22,708 bases of DNA, taken from positions 248,001 through 270,708 of the forward strand of contig JAVKOQ020000039.1 of NCBI GenBank assembly GCA_031835245.2, written 5' to 3'. Positions 11,770 to 22,689 of this stretch are shown piece after piece. A program made the translations under genes and the position numbers. The first letter of the stretch is position 1. Every line of letters starts with the position of its first letter. The notes below the pieces were generated by a model that worked only from the letters and a program-made list of their open reading frames with translations, made no database searches and was not told the DNA's origin. This stretch comes from Balamuthia mandrillaris. Taxonomy: Eukaryota.

Positions 11770-12350
11770 AATAAATAAATTTATTTAAGAGTTTTTGTAT
11801 TCATACAACAATAAAAATGCTAAAGTAAAATACACATTGCACTGTGGTTTTTGCCAGGACTTGTACATTCTCTCTCATCCTTGTTTTCTAAACAAATGAA
11901 AGGTGTTGAATGAGTTTTCAGACTAGCTTTGCACAATATCTATTCTCCTCTTTTCTCTTTTTCTCATTAAAAGGAATGAATAACATGAATAGACAGGGCC
12001 AAGACGTATTATTCAAGAGGGAACAAGGGAACAAATGGTGTCAAAAGGGAAAGGTGAGGTATAAATAAAACAAAACTAACTAAAGAAAAAAAGAAGGAAG
12101 CAACAGAATAAAAGGAAGAAGCCAAGTGATGTGGCAGTAGGTCCATGTCACAAATGTTGACAGGAAGAAAAGAAAAGAAAGAGCTATTCTCCTTCCTTAC
12201 TAGCCTTATCACATTTCCTTTGCTTATTCTACGTTATTTCTAAGGATTGATGAAATGCAAAAGAACATCCATACTTCCAATTTGCTCTTATTGTCCATAA
12301 TCTCTATACTTGTTTTCAACTTTCCTTGCATTGTTCCCTTAAGTTCTTTT
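11770..12350 (-). mobile_element. Diverged inverted 3' fragment of the same LINE family, interrupted by a ~234-bp insert (11950-12183)
   Basis: The reverse complement of 12210-12340 aligns with 12773-12890 (GGAACAATG..GAGATTATGG..AAGAGCAA..TTGGAAG..TGCATTT..ATCAATC). The reverse complement of 11895-11935 matches CAAAG.TAGTCTGAAA.CTCATTCAACACCTTTCA. The left boundary is uncertain. Confidence 0.65.
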
Positions 12351-12607
12351 ATCATATAGTATATAGATTGTCAACAGAAAAAAAAGAATGGAATGAAAAA
12401 AAATAAAGAGTTGATATATTGGCAGGTCCTAGGACCCTGGTGCATTCCACTGGCAGTTGAGTGAGGACAGGATGATAACACCATGTTGGAGCCTTGGTGA
12501 GTTGTTTAAAAACCAGGTTATAATACACACCTTAAGAATGATATACTATTTATGGAAAACAGGTTTGGCCATTGTATAAATAAATTATGCTTTCTAGAAA
12601 GGATCTG

Positions 12608-13110
12608 AAACAGCAGAACACTTCCTGTTAAGATGTCCAAATCTTTGGGAAGATCGCTTTAGAATCTGGAGTGTGGACAATGGAAATGAAGAACAAGTCA
12701 GAAAGCTGATTATAAAGGACTGTACAACAAAGCTCTTGTCGAGCGGAAAGAAATGCAACAGAGATCAAGAGATGGAACAATGTAAGCAAAGTTGTAAAAG
12801 AGTCTGGAGATTATGGGCAGCAAGAGCAAGTTGGAAGCATGGAAGTTCTTCTGCATTTTATCAATCTTTGGAAGTAATGTAAAAGCAAAGAAAAGAGAAG
12901 AAAGGAAAGGGAAAGAAAAAGGATAGCAAGATGATACAAAGTTAGTCTGAAATCTCATTCAACACCTTTCACTTGTGAACTTGAATAACAATTGGAAAGG
13001 CATCGAGGATGAGGGAGTAAGAGAAGTAAAAGTACACTATGTATGTACAATGCTTACTTTTTATGTATAGATTGGTGTTGCTCTCAGAGCAAATAAACTT
13101 CTTATTACTA
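12608..13110 (+). mobile_element. 5'-truncated non-LTR retrotransposon (LINE) 3' end with 14-bp TSD CTAGAAAGGATCTG
   Basis: TSD at 12594-12607 and 13111-13124. Near-identical to 18603-19105. Encodes the ETAEHFLLRCP zinc-knuckle remnant. AATAAA is followed by a (TAC)n tail. Confidence 0.88.
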
Positions 13111-13167
13111 CTAGAAAGGATCTGCTAGGGCCATGGACACTTGCTGGTTGTGTTGAAGTGCATCATG

Positions 13168-13507
13168 TGTTGAAAAACTCCAACATAATAGCTCTTCTTC
13201 TCTTCCTGTCGACCTCTTCTTCATGCCTGTTGACCTAAGGAAACCTCTCCATGTCCAACTTCTCCTTTTTTGAACTTCTCTTTTCTTGTTGTTTTCTCTC
13301 TTTGCTCTTTTATGCTGATTCTCTGCTCTTCTTTCTTGGATAATTGTTCAGCTTAAATACTGCCTCTCCTTGCTTTTCCTCTTGGGACAAACTTGCAACA
13401 CTACACAAGATACCTTACTTTCACTTACACTCATTACTTTAGTAAATTAAGTTCAGGTCTTATATTTACTTTGTCTCAGCTATCATTCCCGTTCTGATTT
13501 TACAACA
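13168..13507. mobile_element. Solo LTR (340 bp) with 4-bp TSD CATG
   Basis: Inverted termini TGTTGAAAAA...TTTTACAACA. CATG at 13164-13167 and 13508-13511. Removing it restores the minus-strand frame PLDIARKIIKGIHDALQHNQQVSMALADPF. Confidence 0.8.
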
Positions 13508-13709
13508 CATGGATGCCTTTAATGATTTTTCGAGCAATGTCAAGAGGAGGTGGAAGTTCAACATATTGATCTGTGTCAGAAATGTTGGAGTCATCTTCCT
13601 TGAACTCTTCTCATTCACCAGGAAGAGGATAACACACAAGAAGGCATAAGACCAATTCTAATGCATCACATTATGTTATGTTTCTTTCAAATAAGATCTC
13701 ATGCTCACC

Positions 13710-13991
13710 TTAGAGCAGCATGATGAAGAAGTGGTGATATAGCTTACAGGAGCCACAGTCAATGTAGACATGTGCTGCACAGCAGGCAACATGAGTGGTG
13801 GACTTGTCATCTAATGTGATCTCTATGTTGTCAATGTGAGAAATGACAGTATAGTGGTGTTCACAGGACGCTGGATAGAGGGACTTTTCTGCCACTGCTG
13901 GAGAGATAAAAGAGTGAGATGCTTCAAAGTCTATGAAGGCTGTGGCACACTGACAGTTAAGGAGGATGGAAGCCATGATAGGAAGTTCCAC
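13710..13991 (-). pseudogene. Retrotransposon aspartic protease remnant
   Basis: ATAFIDFEASHSFIS is a degenerate gag-asp protease active-site motif. It lies downstream of the gag-like ORF. Confidence 0.7.
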
Positions 13992-15087
13992 TATGTCCTC
14001 ACAGTCGTCTTTTACATCATCATTATCATCTATATCAAGACCTGGTGACTACAAGGCTGAAAGTGTCCATAGCTCTGAAAGAGAGAATTAAGATCAATGA
14101 TAGTAAGCTCTAATTGCCTTGGATCTCTCAGGCATGGTAGCTTCCATGAACTCCTACTTTGCAGTAGCATCTAGTTTGTTTGTAGATGGCTAGTTGGTGC
14201 CAAAGGGAGGCGAAACTGGTGAAAGAGACAGTGATGAAGGTGGTGATGGTGCTGAAGCTAGTTGCTGAGACTGTGATGTTTGCACCTGACTAGAGTTGAG
14301 TGCTGCAGGCTGGTGGGGTTTACACTAATGACCAGGATGCTGTTAGAAAGGGCAAATAACACGAACGGACGGGGCCAAAACGTATTATTGAATAATACGG
14401 GTCATCATGTTCAAGGTTGTATACAAATAGACGAGTCAGAATCTTGGAAGAATTCAATGGAGAGTCCAAAGAGGTAGGTCATGTCAAAGAAAAGCTCTGT
14501 AAAGGATGTATCAGCTGCATGATAAGGGGTGTGCACATGGGGTGGACTGTCAAAGAAGAGGCTCTCTTTGCCTTCTTTGACCTTCTCAGGCTCAGTGTGT
14601 TGTTGCCATTGGGCTTTGACCACCTGGTTGAGCTCAATGCACTCAAGGCAGTCCAGAACCTTGTTCACAATGTGGATGAGGGTGTCCATAATGGTTGTCT
14701 CATAGTACTTAAAGATGGACTTGTTGGTGTGCTCAAGAAGGACATTAACAGCTTCTATGAGGTAGGAGATATAGAAGGTTTGAGGCTCAAGGCAATCAAG
14801 CAGTTTGGAGAGGTATTGGAGGTTTTTCTGCTCCACTGGCTGGTAAGCATGATCCAGTTCCTGGATGTGATGCTCTGCAGAGTAGAGTTCCCATTTTGTA
14901 GCTGTTAATCGGGCAAAGGTTTGATCCTCATTGACCATCTGGTGTTTGTCCAGAGATTTGAGGAGCTTGTTTCATGTGAAAGTTCTGGAGGAGATAAATT
15001 GTTTCAATGTTAAGTACCATACTTGTCATCATCACTCATTGTTGTGAGGCTGAACCTTTTCTACTACTAAGAGTTTGCTTAAAAAAA

Positions 15088-15256
15088 TATTGATGGGATA
15101 AACTTTGTGGATCAAGAAAGGAACAGCACATAAGTGACTCTGGGTTTATTCACAGGAAAAAGTGGTGGACCAAAGTGTGTGATTTGAATATGTCATGAGG
15201 AAAAAGAGAAAATAAAAGGGGTGAATTTGGGGTATCCAGGGAGAGTGTTGTTGACA
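15088..15256 (-). repeat. 5' LTR of the Gypsy-like element (short, 169 bp)
   Basis: Similar to both ends of 17633-18099 (TAAGTGACTCTGGGTTTATTCACA, GGACCAAAGTGTGT, AATTTGGGGTATCCA, TGTTGTTGACA). Contains a minus-strand AATAAA and directly precedes the gag-like region. Confidence 0.72.
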
Positions 15257-15299
15257 GGAAGTCATAATTTTTATGACTTTTTACATCGTTGGTTTTCAA

Positions 15300-15420
15300 A
15301 CAATTTGGCCTCTTGAACTTGCTTCATAGCCTTCCCATTAAGTCTTTACTCCTTATCATGAGCTTTCTTTCCTTGAACTATTACCATTGATTTCTTTGCA
15401 TACCTAATGTTCCCATTCAG
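15300..15420 (-). pseudogene. Possible non-LTR reverse transcriptase fragment
   Basis: NIRYAKKSMVIVQGKKAHDKE*RLNGKAMKQVQEAK resembles the LINE RT segment preceding KYLG. It is short and decayed. Confidence 0.35.
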
Positions 15421-16179
15421 TTAGTTAATAGCACTTGACCATAGTACTAATCTGCAATAATGAAGCAAGGGGTGTCAAAAGGGAGGAAGGGAGGTGTAAG
15501 ACCACCAATGACCTAAAAGGAGCATAGGTACAGCTAAGAGAGACAGTTCTCAAGAATCATGTGAATGCTAAGACAATGAACAATCTCAAAGTTGTACTCT
15601 GAGATAAGGAGAGCCCAACTGTTGAAGATGTAGTTTTATTATCGGAATTATTATTTTGATAAAAATTGTTTTCATTAAAATTGAAAGTCAATTATGCAAA
15701 GGCCCCAATGGTAGTCATTGCTGTTGAAGCTTTCATTGTTTCATTCTCTGCCTGAGATAGACATTGCAAAAGGGCATAGATTGCTACACAGGAGAAAAAT
15801 AAGAGGTCAGAAAGAAATAGCAAACTCTCTTGCAAACCAATGAGAGCATACCCATTACTACTCTGAACCATAATGCATCGACTGCAACCATACTCATGAC
15901 CATAAGTAAGGTTAGAACTTTTACATGAGGGGTGGAACTTGCATCACTGTTATCCCTTTCCCTTTGCTTGGGAATGAGGTTACAGCACGTCTGCTTTCAA
16001 TTCCTTTCAGTTTTTGGTTTTAACAACCATTATTGTTCCCATCATTCTTGCCCAACATACTTTTCTTTTTGTTTCCACCTTTTTTTTATATAAAGTTACC
16101 AGTGACACAACACAACCATCACACACCTATTTTGTTTGTTTGTTTGGCTTTTGTTTTTGTTTTTTCCTTTTTTTTCATT

Positions 16180-17260
16180 ATGGAAGAGAAGAAAAAAAGA
16201 TTTGCAGAGATTTATGGGTGGATTTTTGAAAGAATGGTTCCATTGCAGCAGCTTTCAAGGTTGTACAATGGAGAAGAAGATGCTCTGACCTTCTATTGAG
16301 TCCAATGGAGATCAACTCATGGGCTTACAAAGTGAACAGGAGTGAAGGTGCTTAGTAATCCTCTCACCACCCTTGATGGAGTGAAAGTGTTGGTGCTGAC
16401 AGTCAAGAAAATGAAGAATGGAGTCCTTGAGGTTGCACTCCGTGAGAATCTTCACTGCTCTGGTAGCTTTGCCTGTACTCCTCCAAGCAGAAAGAAAAAC
16501 AAAAAAAAAAGGACTGTGGAGTGCAAAGCTGTTGGGTGGTGTTTAGAGACAAGCTGAACACTGCCTACATCTACATCCAAAAGGAAGCCCAAAGCCACAG
16601 ACCTGGGTTTTTCTGCAATGCCTATGACGCCTGCACTTTGACAATGGCTCTGCCAGATGGATGGGCAAGGAGCAAAAGAAGACAGGATGAAAGGAGGGGA
16701 GGAGCAATGATGACGCATGAGCTGCAACAACTATTGCTGGGGGGTGCTTGTGAGCTGGTCAAGGATGCTATTGATGTACCAACTGTGATGGAGATTGCCA
16801 CTATAATCCACAACAGAAGGAAAAAACTGCAAATCAGCAAGAAAGGCCAAACCAAAGCAGAAGCCCTCCAAGAGGCCTGGAATCAACATGAGCTGGCTTC
16901 CATTATCCTTTTTCCACCTTTGGAGAGCTGTGAAGCATACATCCTTGATCACACTGCAGCCCATCGGCCATGGATGATGTTTTTGATCACACCTTAGGCA
17001 GTCACTGTGCTTCAGCAATGGGGTAAGGAGGTAGTCAGCCTGACTTGGGATGGAGCTGGCCTGTTGCCTTCACTGTGGCTAGCAAGGAACGAGCTGTGGT
17101 TGTGTGCTTTTTTCTTTTGTCTGTTCATCACTTTTTTGAAACACAGACCACAATGATCTCTCTCCAACACCTACATGGCAACCCTTTGTAATGATCAACA
17201 AAGACAAGGTGGAGTGCAACAGGGCAACAAGCACTGGCTTTCAGGTGTTGACTTTCATAC
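16180..17260 (+). pseudogene. Mutator-like (MULE) DDE transposase relic
   Basis: Frame-disrupted translation from ATG 16180. It includes VLQQWGKEVVSL, then GWSWPVAFTVASKERAVVVCFFL (17048-), then WQPFVMINKDKVEC (17176-; ATC AAC may be ATC GAC after CpG decay). These MULE core motifs appear in the expected order. Confidence 0.65.
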
Positions 17261-17632
17261 AAACAAAGAAAAAGTGACTGTGCCCAGTGTGACAAAAAAA
17301 AGACTAGCAAAAAGAACCAAATAAAAAAAATAAACAGTTTTTCCTTGCCCATCCTCTCCTCTCTCCCCCCCCTCCCCCCCTCAAACTACGGAGGAAGAAA
17401 TGGGGGAGCAAACACTTGGTGACAGTTGCACAAAAATAATAGGTTGGTATAAATAATTACATATTAGGGACAACTACCTGAGGGATGGAACTTTAACGAA
17501 GTGTAAGGACCTTTTCTGTTGTGGGATGGGATGTTTACCCGATTTGCCTCTTTGACAAACCAACTCTACACAATGAAAACATACTATCACTACTTTTAAA
17601 CATGACAAAACCAAAAGTAAGATCAATGGTCT

Positions 17633-18099
17633 TGTTGATGGGGAATAACCCTGCGACTCAAGAAAGGGACGGCATGTAAGTGACTCTGGGTTTATTCACA
17701 TGAAAAAGGGGTGTGGACCAAAGTGTGTACTTTGAATATATATATCTCGAGAAAAAAGGGAAAATAAAAAGGAGTGAAAGAATTTGGGGTATCCAAAAGG
17801 AGGAAGGAAGTGGCAGATGGCCACACTCTCTTTTGCCTTTTTACTGAGTGTTGAATCAGCAGCGAACACCCCCTGCTTCCTCACCATTCCCCTCTCTTTG
17901 TTGCTCACAAAGAGAACACCAGGAAAGAAAAGAGAGGAGAGAGGTGGAAGCAGAATGCCAAGGAGAAAGGAGGAATAGGCCAAGGGGAACAAGAACTGTG
18001 GGTACTGTGTGTTGTACCTTTGGGAGACAACAACTGCAAAAGAAGAAGGAGAAGCAGGGCATAAATATTACATACCTGAGGGTTCCTTTGTTGTTGACA
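17633..18099 (-). repeat. LTR related to 15088-15256 (long 467-bp version, no internal domain attached)
   Basis: Minus-strand termini TGTCAACA...CATCAACA. Shares both terminal blocks with the short LTR and has ~300 bp extra internally. No TSD is recognisable. Confidence 0.68.
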
Positions 18100-18431
18100 A
18101 AATCATAACATGGAGGAATAGAACAAAGTGAACCAGTCCCTGTGCTTGCTCTCACTCTTCTGCAGTTTAACTCCCTCTTCTCCCACAACACTGAAGAAAC
18201 TAACACAGATAACAAAGAAGAAAAGATACTCGCATGATGCCTTATCCTCAATTTTATCTCTTTGATAAAGAACTGCAGGCCTTTAGCTAGCCTGTTCAAG
18301 GACAGCATAAGCCACTTGGAAGTCTTTCTATCTGTCCTCTAGGGTCTTTGGACAAGGGCAAGAGCAATGGCAATAGTGCATGGTTGTGTTTGTGCCAGTT
18401 TACAGTCTCCATAAATTCTATATGATGGAAA

Positions 18432-19111
18432 CAAATGGAAGATGTTTGGTTGGACAACAACGGAGCTTAGTGATTACCAACCCAAGGAAAGAACATTTGA
18501 TGAATGCTATTCGTTGTGGTGGACTGTCCATTGGAAAAAAGTGAGGAGCCATTCAGCAGTCTGAGGAGGATAGTAAGTGCCCTGCATGTGGTGCTGAGGA
18601 AGAAACAGCAGAATACTTCCTGTTAAGATGTCCAAATCTTTGGGAAGATCGCTTTAGAATCTGGAGTGTGGACAATGGAAATGAAGAACAAGTCAGAAAG
18701 CTGATTATAAAGGACTGTACAACAAAGCTCTTGTCGAGCGGAAAGAAATGCAACAGAGATCAAGAGATGGAACAATGTAAGCAAAGTTGTAAAAGAGTCT
18801 GGAGATTATGGGCAGCAAGAGCAAGTTGGAAGCATGGAAGTTCTTCTGCATTTTATCAATCTTTGGAAGTAATGTAAAAGCAAAGAAAAGAGAAGAAAGG
18901 AAAGGGAAAGAAAAAGGATAGCAAGATGATACAAAGTTAGTCTGAAATCTCATTCAACACCTTTCACTTGTGAACTTGAATAACAATTGGGAAGGCATTG
19001 AGGATGAGGAAGTAAGAGAAGTAAGAGTACACTATGTATGTACAATGCTTACTTTTTATGTATAGATTGGTGTTGCTCTCAGAGCAAATAAACTTCTTAT
19101 TACTACTACTG
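18432..19111 (+). mobile_element. 5'-truncated LINE 3' end with 14-bp TSD CTATATGATGGAAA
   Basis: TSD at 18418-18431 and 19112-19125. Encodes KCPACGAEEETAEYFLLRCP (non-LTR ORF2 C-terminal zinc knuckle) through to VWRLWAAR. AATAAA is followed by a TACTACTACT tail. Confidence 0.88.
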
Positions 19112-19989
19112 CTATATGATGGAAATTGGTGGTTTTTCTGCCCAGCTAAATTTATATGGACAGTTTTTGGTGGCTGATGGAAAAACTGCCAAAACCACTG
19201 TTTTGGGAAAGCTGCAAAACCGTTACACAAAAATTTGTCCAGAATTTTTGACAGCTTAATTTGACTACCAAAATCCACTGAGTGTACAGGAATTTCAAAG
19301 ATCTTTTTCCTGCTTTCTGTGAAACTTTCCCAAGCCTAGAACTTAAAAATAGAAAAACTAAGAAGTCACTCTCCAACTCCAAGCCTCTTTCCTTCCTTGA
19401 CTTGCTTCTCAACTATAAATACTCTTCTTTTAACAAGAATTACAAAAATGGAAAAAACATAAGGGACTCAAGAAGTAATACTTGATTTTTTTTCTTGGTT
19501 CTATGCTCAGGTTCCTAAAGGTGACTGTTTATTGAAACAAAAAAAAATGAAAACAAAAACAGAAAAAAGCGGCAGAAAGTGGCCACACATCTCATCATAA
19601 GGAGTGCTATAACACCATAGCTTCTGGGTGCCAAGTGTGGTGATATGTGTGCACAAGGTACTGGATTAGTGCAGTGGCCTTGTCACTCATTTTTATGCTT
19701 TGTTCTGCTATATTCCTGGTAGAAAAGCAAATATATATATAGAAACAATGAAGTTACTACAAACCAACAGAAAAGATGTGTTTGCAGGGATTGTGAAAAG
19801 AAACTGGTAGTACACAGAAGTGGTTTAATCTTTTATTTTGTGCTGTCTCCCTTTCCTTTTGTTCACTTTCTTCTGGTCTTATTTTTGATTAAAAAGGTAC
19901 TTCTCAGACAAAAGAAATCAAAAATGGTAAATCTCCATAAAGAATAAAGTCAGTCAGGTCATTTCCCTTACTCACCTAGTTGTCACATG

Positions 19990-20345
19990 TCTTTCCAAAA
20001 TTGGTTCCTTAAAAGTAAAGACCAGGTAGTAGGCAAATCCCTTTCTTTTTTCCCCCAGATCTGATAAGGAGAGGAAACCTCATCTTTTTTCATACAAACA
20101 AGAAGAACCTTAATCAATAGCAAAGATTGCCAGGAAGAAAATGTTTTAAACCTGGACATAATGCTATTAATGTGTAACTTGAAAAAAAAGAGAGAAACAG
20201 CAATGCTCTTGACGGTTGCTATTTCAGAAAAAGAAAAGGCATTCAAGGTTTGTGTTCCTTCATAAGTGTATATAGCCATAGCTTATTAATCAATCTTGTT
20301 GAACAGAACGAAATATCCCCACAATTCCAAGCAATTTGTTGCATA
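19990..20345 (-). pseudogene. Possible LINE APE-endonuclease N-terminal remnant
   Basis: MQQIAWNCG followed, after frameshifts, by an ECLF(F)SEIAT-like segment resembles the APE WN and xLxE motifs. Heavily decayed. Confidence 0.3.
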
Positions 20346-20595
20346 CTTTTACTTTACTTTATGTTAAACTTTTACTGCTGATGATCTGGCCTTTAAAGTA
20401 TACCCAGAATTTCTGCTACTCTTCTGCTTATCACCTTGCAAAAATAACCAAAGAAATAATTATTATTTTGATTTTGTTAGACAACAAACAGCATGATGGA
20501 AGCTCTCTTGTGCTTTGCTCCACCTAGAGGACAAGCAGAAGATCAAGGGCCATGATTCTTGTTCCCAGCACTACAAGCTAGACATTATCTACATA

Positions 20596-21343
20596 AATGA
20601 CAATGGCTGCCTTCACCGTCACTTTCCTCCCCTCAGGAATAACTTCCTTTGTCCTTCTCAAGAAGCACAGTGTTTCTGTTGAGAGACATTTCACAAAGTA
20701 TGTGGATTCCCAGGATCTGTTGCTGTTAAAAAACAACAAGCACTTGTACCAAAACAACAATGAGTAGGTGCTGAAACAGGTTGCACTCCAAGAGTGGCAA
20801 TGTTCTTTACATAAATGTAACAAAAGAGAAGGCCCACAGGGTTTTTTGGATTTTCTACAGCTGCACCTCAAATTATTGCATGACAACCTCTCCCAGGTCT
20901 GCCCTCATGTCATAGCCTCTTTCTCTACCCCCGTCTGGTGGCAACAAACGGAGCAAAAGCAGGTCTATGTAGATGTTCCCAAGTTTACTGAATGCGACTT
21001 CTACATTCTAGGAACAATGGTTTTCAGAGATGGTGGAGGTGAGGGCTAAAGAAATGATTCAGCGACTGATGTCATTGATCTTTGCCAATGCCATGAAGGT
21101 CATGTGAGAAGCAAACTCTTCAAGTACCTCTTGCACTACAACAAACTTATTTACCAAAAAGCGGTGGACTTCCGATTGGGTTCCTACTCCTCTGTCATCA
21201 ATTGCCATTTTGAGAAGGACCCCATTGGCTTCATGTTGCACTTGTGTGATGAGCTAACTATGTGAAAGTTTGAAGAGACCTACTTCAAGGTCACCATTCC
21301 ATCGAAGGAACAACACCATGCACACATATTTGTCCTGGACCAG
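20596..21343 (+). pseudogene. Intronless pseudogene of unrecognised family
   Basis: A single frame of ~250 codons with only three stops (TAG, TAA, TGA), each reachable by a C-to-T transition. It reads ...RSKLFKYLLHYNKLIYQKAVDFRLGSY...KFEETYFKVTIPSKEQHHAHIFVLDQ. Confidence 0.55.
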
Positions 21344-21475
21344 CTGAATGTAACAAGGGAAATCGCAGTTAAAAAAGGAGGAGGAGGAGGTGGTAAGTGC
21401 TTGTAACATGAAAAAGCAGATCAAAATGTTTCAGGCAGTGTTGGCAGCTCAATCAGCCTGGTAGCCACACTCAGA
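21344..21475 (-). ncRNA. Putative Fanzor omega-RNA scaffold region (decayed, possibly partial)
   Basis: Located at the ORF 3' end and presumed right end, where TnpB/Fanzor guide RNAs are encoded. An imperfect 9-bp inverted repeat pairs 21349-21357 with 21400-21408. The minus strand ends in TTCAG. There is no expression evidence. Confidence 0.35.
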
Positions 21476-22020
21476 TGCACAGAGGTTCGTGATGCTGTTC
21501 TTTTTTAAACAAAAGAATTCATTAGTGAGTGGTTGGTAACAAATTTTTTTTCCATCATCAAAAACTGTAGTGAGCAAGCAGAGAAAAAGGCATGCTACCT
21601 TTTCAATCAGAGCAGTGCCCCTGCCTGCAGCTGAACTGCTTCGGTTTCCACCTCTGCCTCCTTCTGCTGGTTTCCTCCTTGTGTAGTAGAAGTGTTGCAA
21701 TCAGAAATATGGTAGGGCGTGGAGCTTCGTGGATGTGTGTGTCTGTGTGTTTACTTTTGAAAAGAAAGAAAAGAAAAGAAGAGAAGAGAAGAGAAGAAAA
21801 GAAAACGAGTAGAAGAAAAGTGTCAAGGTGAATAATGAGTATTAAAAGTTTATTGGCAGCAGCAGCAAGAGCATCCATTCCATTCACCCTACCCAACCCA
21901 CCACTTTGCCCTCACAGACATGGGAGAAGGAGGGTTGTTTTGGCGGGAAACATGCTCATTGGCCCAAAAGACTAATGTCGTGATTTCTTTTTTTTGTTGT
22001 CCTTTGATCTTGGGCCGCCT
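21344..22020 (-). mobile_element. Internally deleted non-autonomous Fanzor element (left end + Fanzor C-terminal remnant + putative omega-RNA/right end)
   Basis: 22022-21476 is a copy of the 1558-1008 left end. It is fused to CASECGYQAD*AANTA*NILICF, which with CpG decay reversed reads CASECGYQADRAANAARNILIRF (TnpB/Fanzor zinc finger and RuvC-III). The right boundary is inferred. Confidence 0.78.
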
Positions 22021-22249
22021 TACAATTTGCCCTGTGCGAGTGCAACAGCTAATAGGTTGGTTATTTTTAAGGAAAGCAGACGAAATTCCCACCTAAAAAC
22101 GATCAACGTCGCCAAGTGCTTGGAAAAGTTGGTGGGGGGGTTGCTGCGGAGGGGAAAAACTAGTAACCAAGAAGAAAGAAAGAGCCAAGGCTGCTGCCCT
22201 CCTTGTTGCGAGTATCTTGCTTAATCCTCCCTTTCCATTTCCATCAACA

Positions 22250-22689
22250 ATGTCACTGGCAAATCAAAGTGGGCGTGGCAGTGTCATTCCTCCTCCTGAC
22301 GATATACCGGTACCACTCCTTCCCATTTGCCTCCTCTCTTCAGCTTTCGTCGATTTGACCCTTTGAACCAATTGATATGTTCACCTCTTAAGTTGGATGA
22401 TGATGAAGGGGGCAATCCATTTGCAGAAGGGGGTAAGTACTGATGGTATTGATTCGAACATTCTTTCTCAACGTCACTCGACAAACCTAAGGAGGACAAG
22501 GCACTCGCAGTGGTCCCGTTCCCAATTATGGAGACGGGGGCGGCTATGCAGATAACTATGGTCTAGACGATGACGACGACGATTTTAATCCTTACAGTGA
22601 ACCTACAAGCTCTGCTCCTAGCCTCAGTGTCCCCCAGACATCTACCGCTGCAGCAAGGCCACACAGTACACCTGAGCTGCAGTTTGAAG
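22250..22689 (+). CDS. 5' part of an unidentified spliced host gene (exons 22250-22309, 22393-22432, 22492-22689; continues beyond window)
   Basis: Phase-consistent GT-AG introns give MSLANQSGRGSVIPPPDDIPLDDDEGGNPFAEGGGQGTRSG...DDDDDFNPYSEP...ELQFE. It is acidic, low-complexity and contains an NPF motif. CpG content returns to normal here. Confidence 0.65.

Follow-up and report, generated by a model that had tools for sequence, protein, structure and literature searches.

A decayed, internally deleted Fanzor2 copy in Balamuthia mandrillaris, with a left junction common to its family and a likely right junction

The window, a stretch of 22,708 nucleotides of Balamuthia mandrillaris contig JAVKOQ020000039.1, contains two minus-strand copies of a Fanzor2 element. 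Copy A lies at the window edge (1–1558), which cuts its ORF so that the N-terminal 324 codons remain (3–974), and its left end (1516–1558) was used to read the left junction of the family. Copy B (21344–22022) is an internally deleted, CpG-decayed, non-autonomous copy, with a left junction that can be seen in the alignments and a right junction that is likely. Next to its right end is a decayed plus-strand ORF (20597–21343, three stops in 249 codons) and beyond its left end is a host gene, for which a spliced contig starts near 22168. The left ends of both copies are situated 90–150 bp upstream of a host-gene 5′ end, head to head (1558–1650 and 22022–22170), based on contigs of run X6, a run that behaves as RNA, given its spliced joints. 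In the gene beside copy A (1746–1844), 14 of 33 residues (SLAWVL) are as in the Fanzor REC region; this similarity was not recovered by a profile of 80 relatives and is probably due to chance.

Residues 170–324 of the copy A protein are 92% identical to an NCBI entry named "Transposase [Balamuthia mandrillaris]," a TnpB-family protein belonging to a ten-member cluster whose members have DPG and EEYTSKTC motifs. The best PDB match of the family protein is the mimivirus Fanzor2 (9B0L, E 5.5e-20), and family member P0007 matches the Pfam families HTH_OrfB_IS605, OrfB_IS605, and TNB. The HTH, the DPG of RuvC-I, the shifted RuvC-II glutamate, the C4 zinc finger, and the RD motif that mark a Fanzor2 protein were all found in the family, of which the window itself holds only the N-terminal part (copy A) and the last codons (copy B), and the NCBI Balamuthia names and the spliced joints in the flanking genes identify the host as eukaryotic. 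P0010 (369 residues), the cluster member matching copy A, extends only 16 residues beyond the window edge and terminates before RuvC; copy A may therefore also be broken. In P0004, a family member elsewhere in the genome, the C-terminus appears by eye to be the right-end hairpin region in the opposite direction, which suggests that an inversion took place at the same unstable right-end spot.

Searches of metagenome and viral collections found no DNA of this family, and we found no Balamuthia Fanzor in print; Balamuthia is absent from the searchable supplements of PMC10711439, PMC10432273 (in which one scanned file is unsearchable), and PMC10530073. The transposons of this amoeba await annotation, according to the accessible text of 10.1101/2025.02.25.640156. 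We consider the Balamuthia element to be a further Fanzor2 of known type that is absent from the papers found.

Reading copy B on the minus strand from its left end, TAAG(G) at 22018–22022 is the predicted TAM plus core (conservation of this site across copies was measured at copy A), followed by a terminal motif (21985–22017) that measures about 40 bp in copy A, is shorter by 8 bp in copy B, and is common to several families with dissimilar interiors. The 5′ non-coding part of the element (21477–21984) is recognized by its similarity to copy A, with 88% identity between 21477–22009 of copy B and 1009–1536 of copy A. At 21473–21476 is the junction of an internal deletion in which almost the entire Fanzor ORF was lost, as contigs with loose ends at 21472 and 21477 run on into family sequence; no contig spanning the deletion was among those listed. 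The ORF 3′ end that was kept (21378–21472, ECGYQAD...LTTSSSS, two stops) has 81% amino acid identity to residues 444–475 of P0008 and is the predicted 5′ part of the omegaRNA. It overlaps the 5′ strand of a predicted pseudoknot helix (21464–21474) in the codons P-E-C-G of the family protein. A 34-nt segment (21344–21377), uncovered by family contigs and likely the terminal right-end piece left by a second deletion, ends with 11 nt that form the 3′ strand of that helix, and past the likely right junction the flank 21324–21343 is the guide predicted from IS607 and Fanzor2 anatomy. Copy B itself lacks an ORF, and its scaffold is damaged.

Decay of copy B is evident at CpG sites: of the 21 CpGs of copy A that could be aligned, 12 correspond to TG or CA in copy B. 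To its left extends a CpG-poor repeat island, of which copy B is the right-hand margin and in which the observed/expected ratio is mostly 0.04–0.36 over 11.5–22 kb, vs. approximately 0.6–0.7 outside. Overall, copy B gives the impression of a lone decayed deletion, damaged at its right end, and not of a conserved ghost family. The island (11800–22020) spans 10 kb between two host genes, has a 507-bp direct repeat of 99% identity (12607/18602), inverted remnants, and a weak match to a retroviral-type aspartyl protease (13713–13991), and its composition suggests methylation-driven decay.

The preliminary description had quoted the minus-strand left ends as aaaa-TAAGGCGGC at 1558 and attg-TAAGGCGGC at 22022, and both occur exactly so, with dissimilar bases beyond; its assignment to a Fanzor2 element, probably of IS607 type, is supported, and a left junction at TAAG is seen in many copies. 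Aligning contigs of four public runs to the copy A left end gave 149 pieces, 32 of them listed, and 27 of these 32 touch the end, 6 merely ending there and 21 running on for at least 30 letters. Among these 21 informative pieces, which from separate runs may represent one locus and are mostly sister families with only the last ~40 bp in common, 14 match through TAA (1558), in one the motif is shifted by a few bases, four stop one base short, one two short, and one three short. Accordingly, TAA is whole in 15 of the listed informative pieces, AA is kept in 19, and the G is reached in 21/21. Loose-end contigs (24 of 56 rows listed) gave a similar distribution, with 15 leaving at 1558, four later, three at 1557, four at 1555, and one at 1550, and agreement among flanks past the junction was 0.47–0.67. 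The left junction at (T)AAG is thus real across the family, and the counts are compatible with TAA as either target or terminus. The shared ~40 bp (1516–1558) joins dissimilar interiors in several families, and one such interior recurs in all four runs. In runs X2 and X3, contigs without copy A depart from the window sequence not at 1558 but at 1584, which is 25 bp beyond the left end, through either clipping at an A-run or a larger indel.

That TAA is conserved and not invariant, and that the 40-bp motif is common to several families, would also fit a cut-and-paste DNA transposon that had captured a Fanzor2, as in the mollusc Fanzor2* elements; TAA would then be a duplicated target and the 40-bp motif one of the terminal inverted repeats; such captures are described in the accessible text of 10.1101/2023.08.09.552727. 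Fanzor2* elements have inverted repeats and a target duplication, features that are not seen in copy B, whose right end is damaged. A search of the window in both orientations, allowing 3 mismatches in 18, gave no second copy of the motif, and of the family right end 30 letters are known, which form no inverted repeat of it. We regard such a capture as very improbable.

At the right end, the sequence contains, as had been proposed, GTTACATTCAG followed directly by CTGG, the 20-nt guide (21343–21324), an excision of 675 nt, and 25 codons open after 22019, and across the family contigs no sequence is shared past 21344, the position taken as the element's end. What had been missed is that family homology of copy B stops at 21378, 34 nt short of that end. 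Family contigs of the four runs aligned to 20800–22500 cover 21378–21996 and past 21378 continue with letters that are absent from copy B; the interval 21313–21369 is covered by the locus's own contig in one run and by nothing in the other three, next to a deeply covered bin. The family proteins P0007 and P0012 likewise read at least 81 nt further into sequence that copy B lost. As both contigs and proteins run past 21378, copy B has lost part of its right end; judged by eye, the missing part is one arm, the second, of a long hairpin. No joint to the 34-nt piece was seen in two contigs that extend 200 letters beyond 21381/21384, and no displaced right end was found elsewhere in the window.

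These observations raise the question of whether the 34-nt piece belongs to the element at all. Had the right end been lost by deletion at 21378, then 21344–21377 would be host or pseudogene DNA and neither core nor guide would be readable; the frame of the pseudogene is open throughout the piece, a 3-nt TAA match at 21369–21371 also joins in frame, and the back-translated family tail matches the piece weakly (reached by 7–16% of controls, not significant). Conversely, a decayed piece of 34 nt may be too short for alignment, as the shortest pieces listed are 39 letters, and a helix of 9–11 bp sits at the very position that had been set beforehand by the preliminary description. We judge a deletion that erased the end entirely to be unlikely.

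The helix pairs the 9 nt preceding the terminal AG with the 9 nt at which the retained Fanzor 3′ end begins, extending to 11 bp in all over the AG. Of the 76 positions compared, an anchor point 2 nt before 21343/21344 gives the strongest helix. As controls, a helix of this kind was found in 1.4% of 4000 tails, 33/1365 tails before AG, 2/65 tails ending TC before AG, and 7/2000 shuffles, although it is less rare when whole 34-nt windows are searched (29 or 63 of 556, 5–11%). We also discounted this evidence because it was found after several other tests. The whole fold of the copy B right end is ordinary (z −0.28), and the partner strand is in the zinc-finger codons, unlike its position in bacterial relatives.

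For comparison, we examined the ends of 80 bacterial and two viral or phage loci using a pseudoknot rule, in which a 5-nt strand that pairs upstream is followed by NG. The rule gives an end in 69 of the 82 relatives, after which identity falls to 31.5%, and these right ends consist of a 5-bp helix strand plus NG, mostly TCGG, TCAG, or TCTG. By a profile of bacterial right ends 21344 ranks only fifth or sixth of 100 positions, and a search with Rfam produced a single chance-level match. In published Fanzor2 and IS607 RNAs, as far as the accessible text describes them, an upstream part pairs with the bases before the guide. The helix test and the TCAG/TCGG ends of relatives make the proposed right junction and guide likely, and we consider the position 21343/21344 probable.

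The register of the core at that junction has two candidates. The preliminary description had given an AG core, a TAM of TAAG, and a guide; the guide is likely and, starting at 21343, is identical in either register, but a CpG-decayed GG core with TAAGG fits at least as well as AG with TAAG. At the left junction the AG would be 22020–22019 and the GG 22019–22018, and either AG or a decayed GG could be the core dinucleotide that an IS607-type element has at both ends. In the published examples accessible to us the last two bases of the scaffold equal the last two of the TAM, with position −3 differing, as in MmeFz2 (CAG/TAG) and NlovFz2 (GCG/CCG; PMC10432273), CboIStron (TCGG/TGGG), and ISXfa1 (CGG/GGG). 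TCAG with TAAG obeys this rule, differing at −3 as other IS607 systems do. Were the right end truly TTCAG, with the same junctions, AG core, and TAAG as TAM, it would have parallels in the MmeFz2 scaffold, which ends GTCAG with TAM TAG (PMC10432273, accessible text), and in relatives, 22 of 69 of which have AG cores at their ends and 18 of 69 TCAG ends, with a GATAC helix and left ends reading GAG joined to GAC. Moreover, the 9-bp helix leaves exactly AG free, and the core A is kept at the left end in 20/21 of the listed informative pieces.

Against AG, the family partner strand is CCGAG (from loose ends at 21472), whose complement ends TCGG; copy B, which is CpG-decayed, reads CTGAG and TTCAG, as CpG decay of both family strands would give. 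Some copies also depart from the shared sequence after the G, and one of the four contigs that leave at 1555 (27 listed) reads C-GG. Two IS607 systems are described, in the accessible text, with an end of CGG and a GG core. The CCGAG partner and the CpG decay thus lead to a GG core and a TAM of TAAGG at the same junction, and given that junction we lean toward the GG register. The AG register as first proposed is a possibility that we rate as rather doubtful, somewhat above loss of the whole end. The predicted TAM of the family's Fanzor is TAAG or TAAGG.

The empty site had been reconstructed by joining the pseudogene in frame to a C-terminus at 22019–22095 (plus strand), with alternative GG/AGG cores also said to keep the frame. 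Those at 21340 and 21334 do keep it, yet so do 13 of 29 shared-dinucleotide registers, with 7 more opening a longer frame, and 32–36% of positions in 11800–22300 open at least 25 codons. Since the open frame is no more than chance would give, the read-through carries no weight, and its length (25 codons in the AG register vs. 68 in the GG register) does not choose between registers. The proposed C-terminus is unsupported and is DNA upstream of the host gene; its 2 CpG in 77 nt are too few to decide. Nor was an uninterrupted allele found in the four runs, as no contig joins 21343 to 22019. One X11 contig, which may be rearranged, matches 22029–22300 and is preceded by 679 letters that fit nothing in 20800–22028; short matches here may be clipped. 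The plus-strand frame of 20597–21343 is a real decayed ORF (5/2000 shuffles). Searches gave it no Pfam family, no homolog at near or longer lengths (weak evidence), and no paralog in the window; a more decayed paralog is present in another run.

Our best explanation of 21344–22022 is a decayed, internally deleted Fanzor2 copy that likely moved in IS607 style through a transposase supplied in trans, with its likely end at 21343/21344, probably a GG core, and TAAGG or its last three bases as TAM, a combination to which we give a little less than even probability. By analogy with IS607, a serine recombinase acting in trans would insert the element at a (T)AAG(G) site via a 2-bp core, without duplication, and after excision the Fanzor with its right-end RNA would cut the rejoined site. 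Copy B could supply at most a shortened omegaRNA, and the Fanzor protein would have to come from another copy. Serine recombinases carry the motif Y-x-R-V/C-S. This motif is absent from the 735 ORFs of the window, in which no transposase was seen.

Several known systems resemble this one, as described in the accessible text of the sources cited here (see also PMC10530073; PMC6188088; PMC3627910; 10.1101/2023.11.20.567912). NlovFz2 and MmeFz2 (Saito et al., 2023, PMC10432273) are eukaryotic Fanzor2 proteins without a linked transposase, and none was seen in the window either; the RuvC region of the Naegleria protein NlovFz2 is close to that of P0007, by eye only. Their TAMs and RNAs were measured, whereas those of Balamuthia are predicted from a decayed copy, and the left motif TAAG(G) corresponds to neither CCG (NlovFz2) nor TAG (MmeFz2). 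The best solved relative of the Balamuthia protein is ApmFz2 of the mimivirus IS607 element ISvMimi (9B0L, PMC11832414), in whose long scaffold a 5′ portion is paired to the nucleotides that immediately precede the guide, like our prediction; however, its TAM is GGG and it has a linked serine recombinase gene, of which none was seen in the window. The "ghost" Fanzor loci (PMC10432273; 10.1101/2023.08.09.552727) keep their ends and omegaRNA region and have lost the ORF, as in copy B.

Bacterial IS607 TnpB systems (ISXfa1, CboIStron, and the cyanobacterial pro-Fanzors) have 29–52% protein identity to the family and are described with a shared core dinucleotide and a TCGG/TCAG right end after a pseudoknot strand. 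Their helix is 5–8 bp and follows the RD-N-ARNI codons, while the one predicted for Balamuthia is 9–11 bp and precedes them. About 40 bp of the CboIStron left end is reported to be enough for the transposase, and the Balamuthia motif is also about 40 bp. The closest relative found among bacterial sequences (52%) is encoded on a 2.3-kb bacterial-MAG contig (L011:3-882) of AT-rich DNA, which may be eukaryotic contamination.

As compact nucleases that can be programmed, Fanzor2 proteins gain targetable sites with every additional TAM. The gain here is incremental, as systems of this type are known and there are earlier examples of TAMs with a final AG or GG. A multi-copy amoebozoan family would also make it possible to study how ends of the IS607 type are mobilized in a eukaryote with no linked transposase. 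As a wider view, which we offer tentatively and think more doubtful than our reading of copy B, Balamuthia may have an undescribed, still-transcribed Fanzor2 with an A-rich TAM (TAAG/TAAGG) and an omegaRNA pseudoknot of 9–11 bp, its 40-bp left end being common to several sister families, themselves non-autonomous, that a single hidden serine recombinase would mobilize; every inserted copy, including those without an ORF, would then give a new guide.
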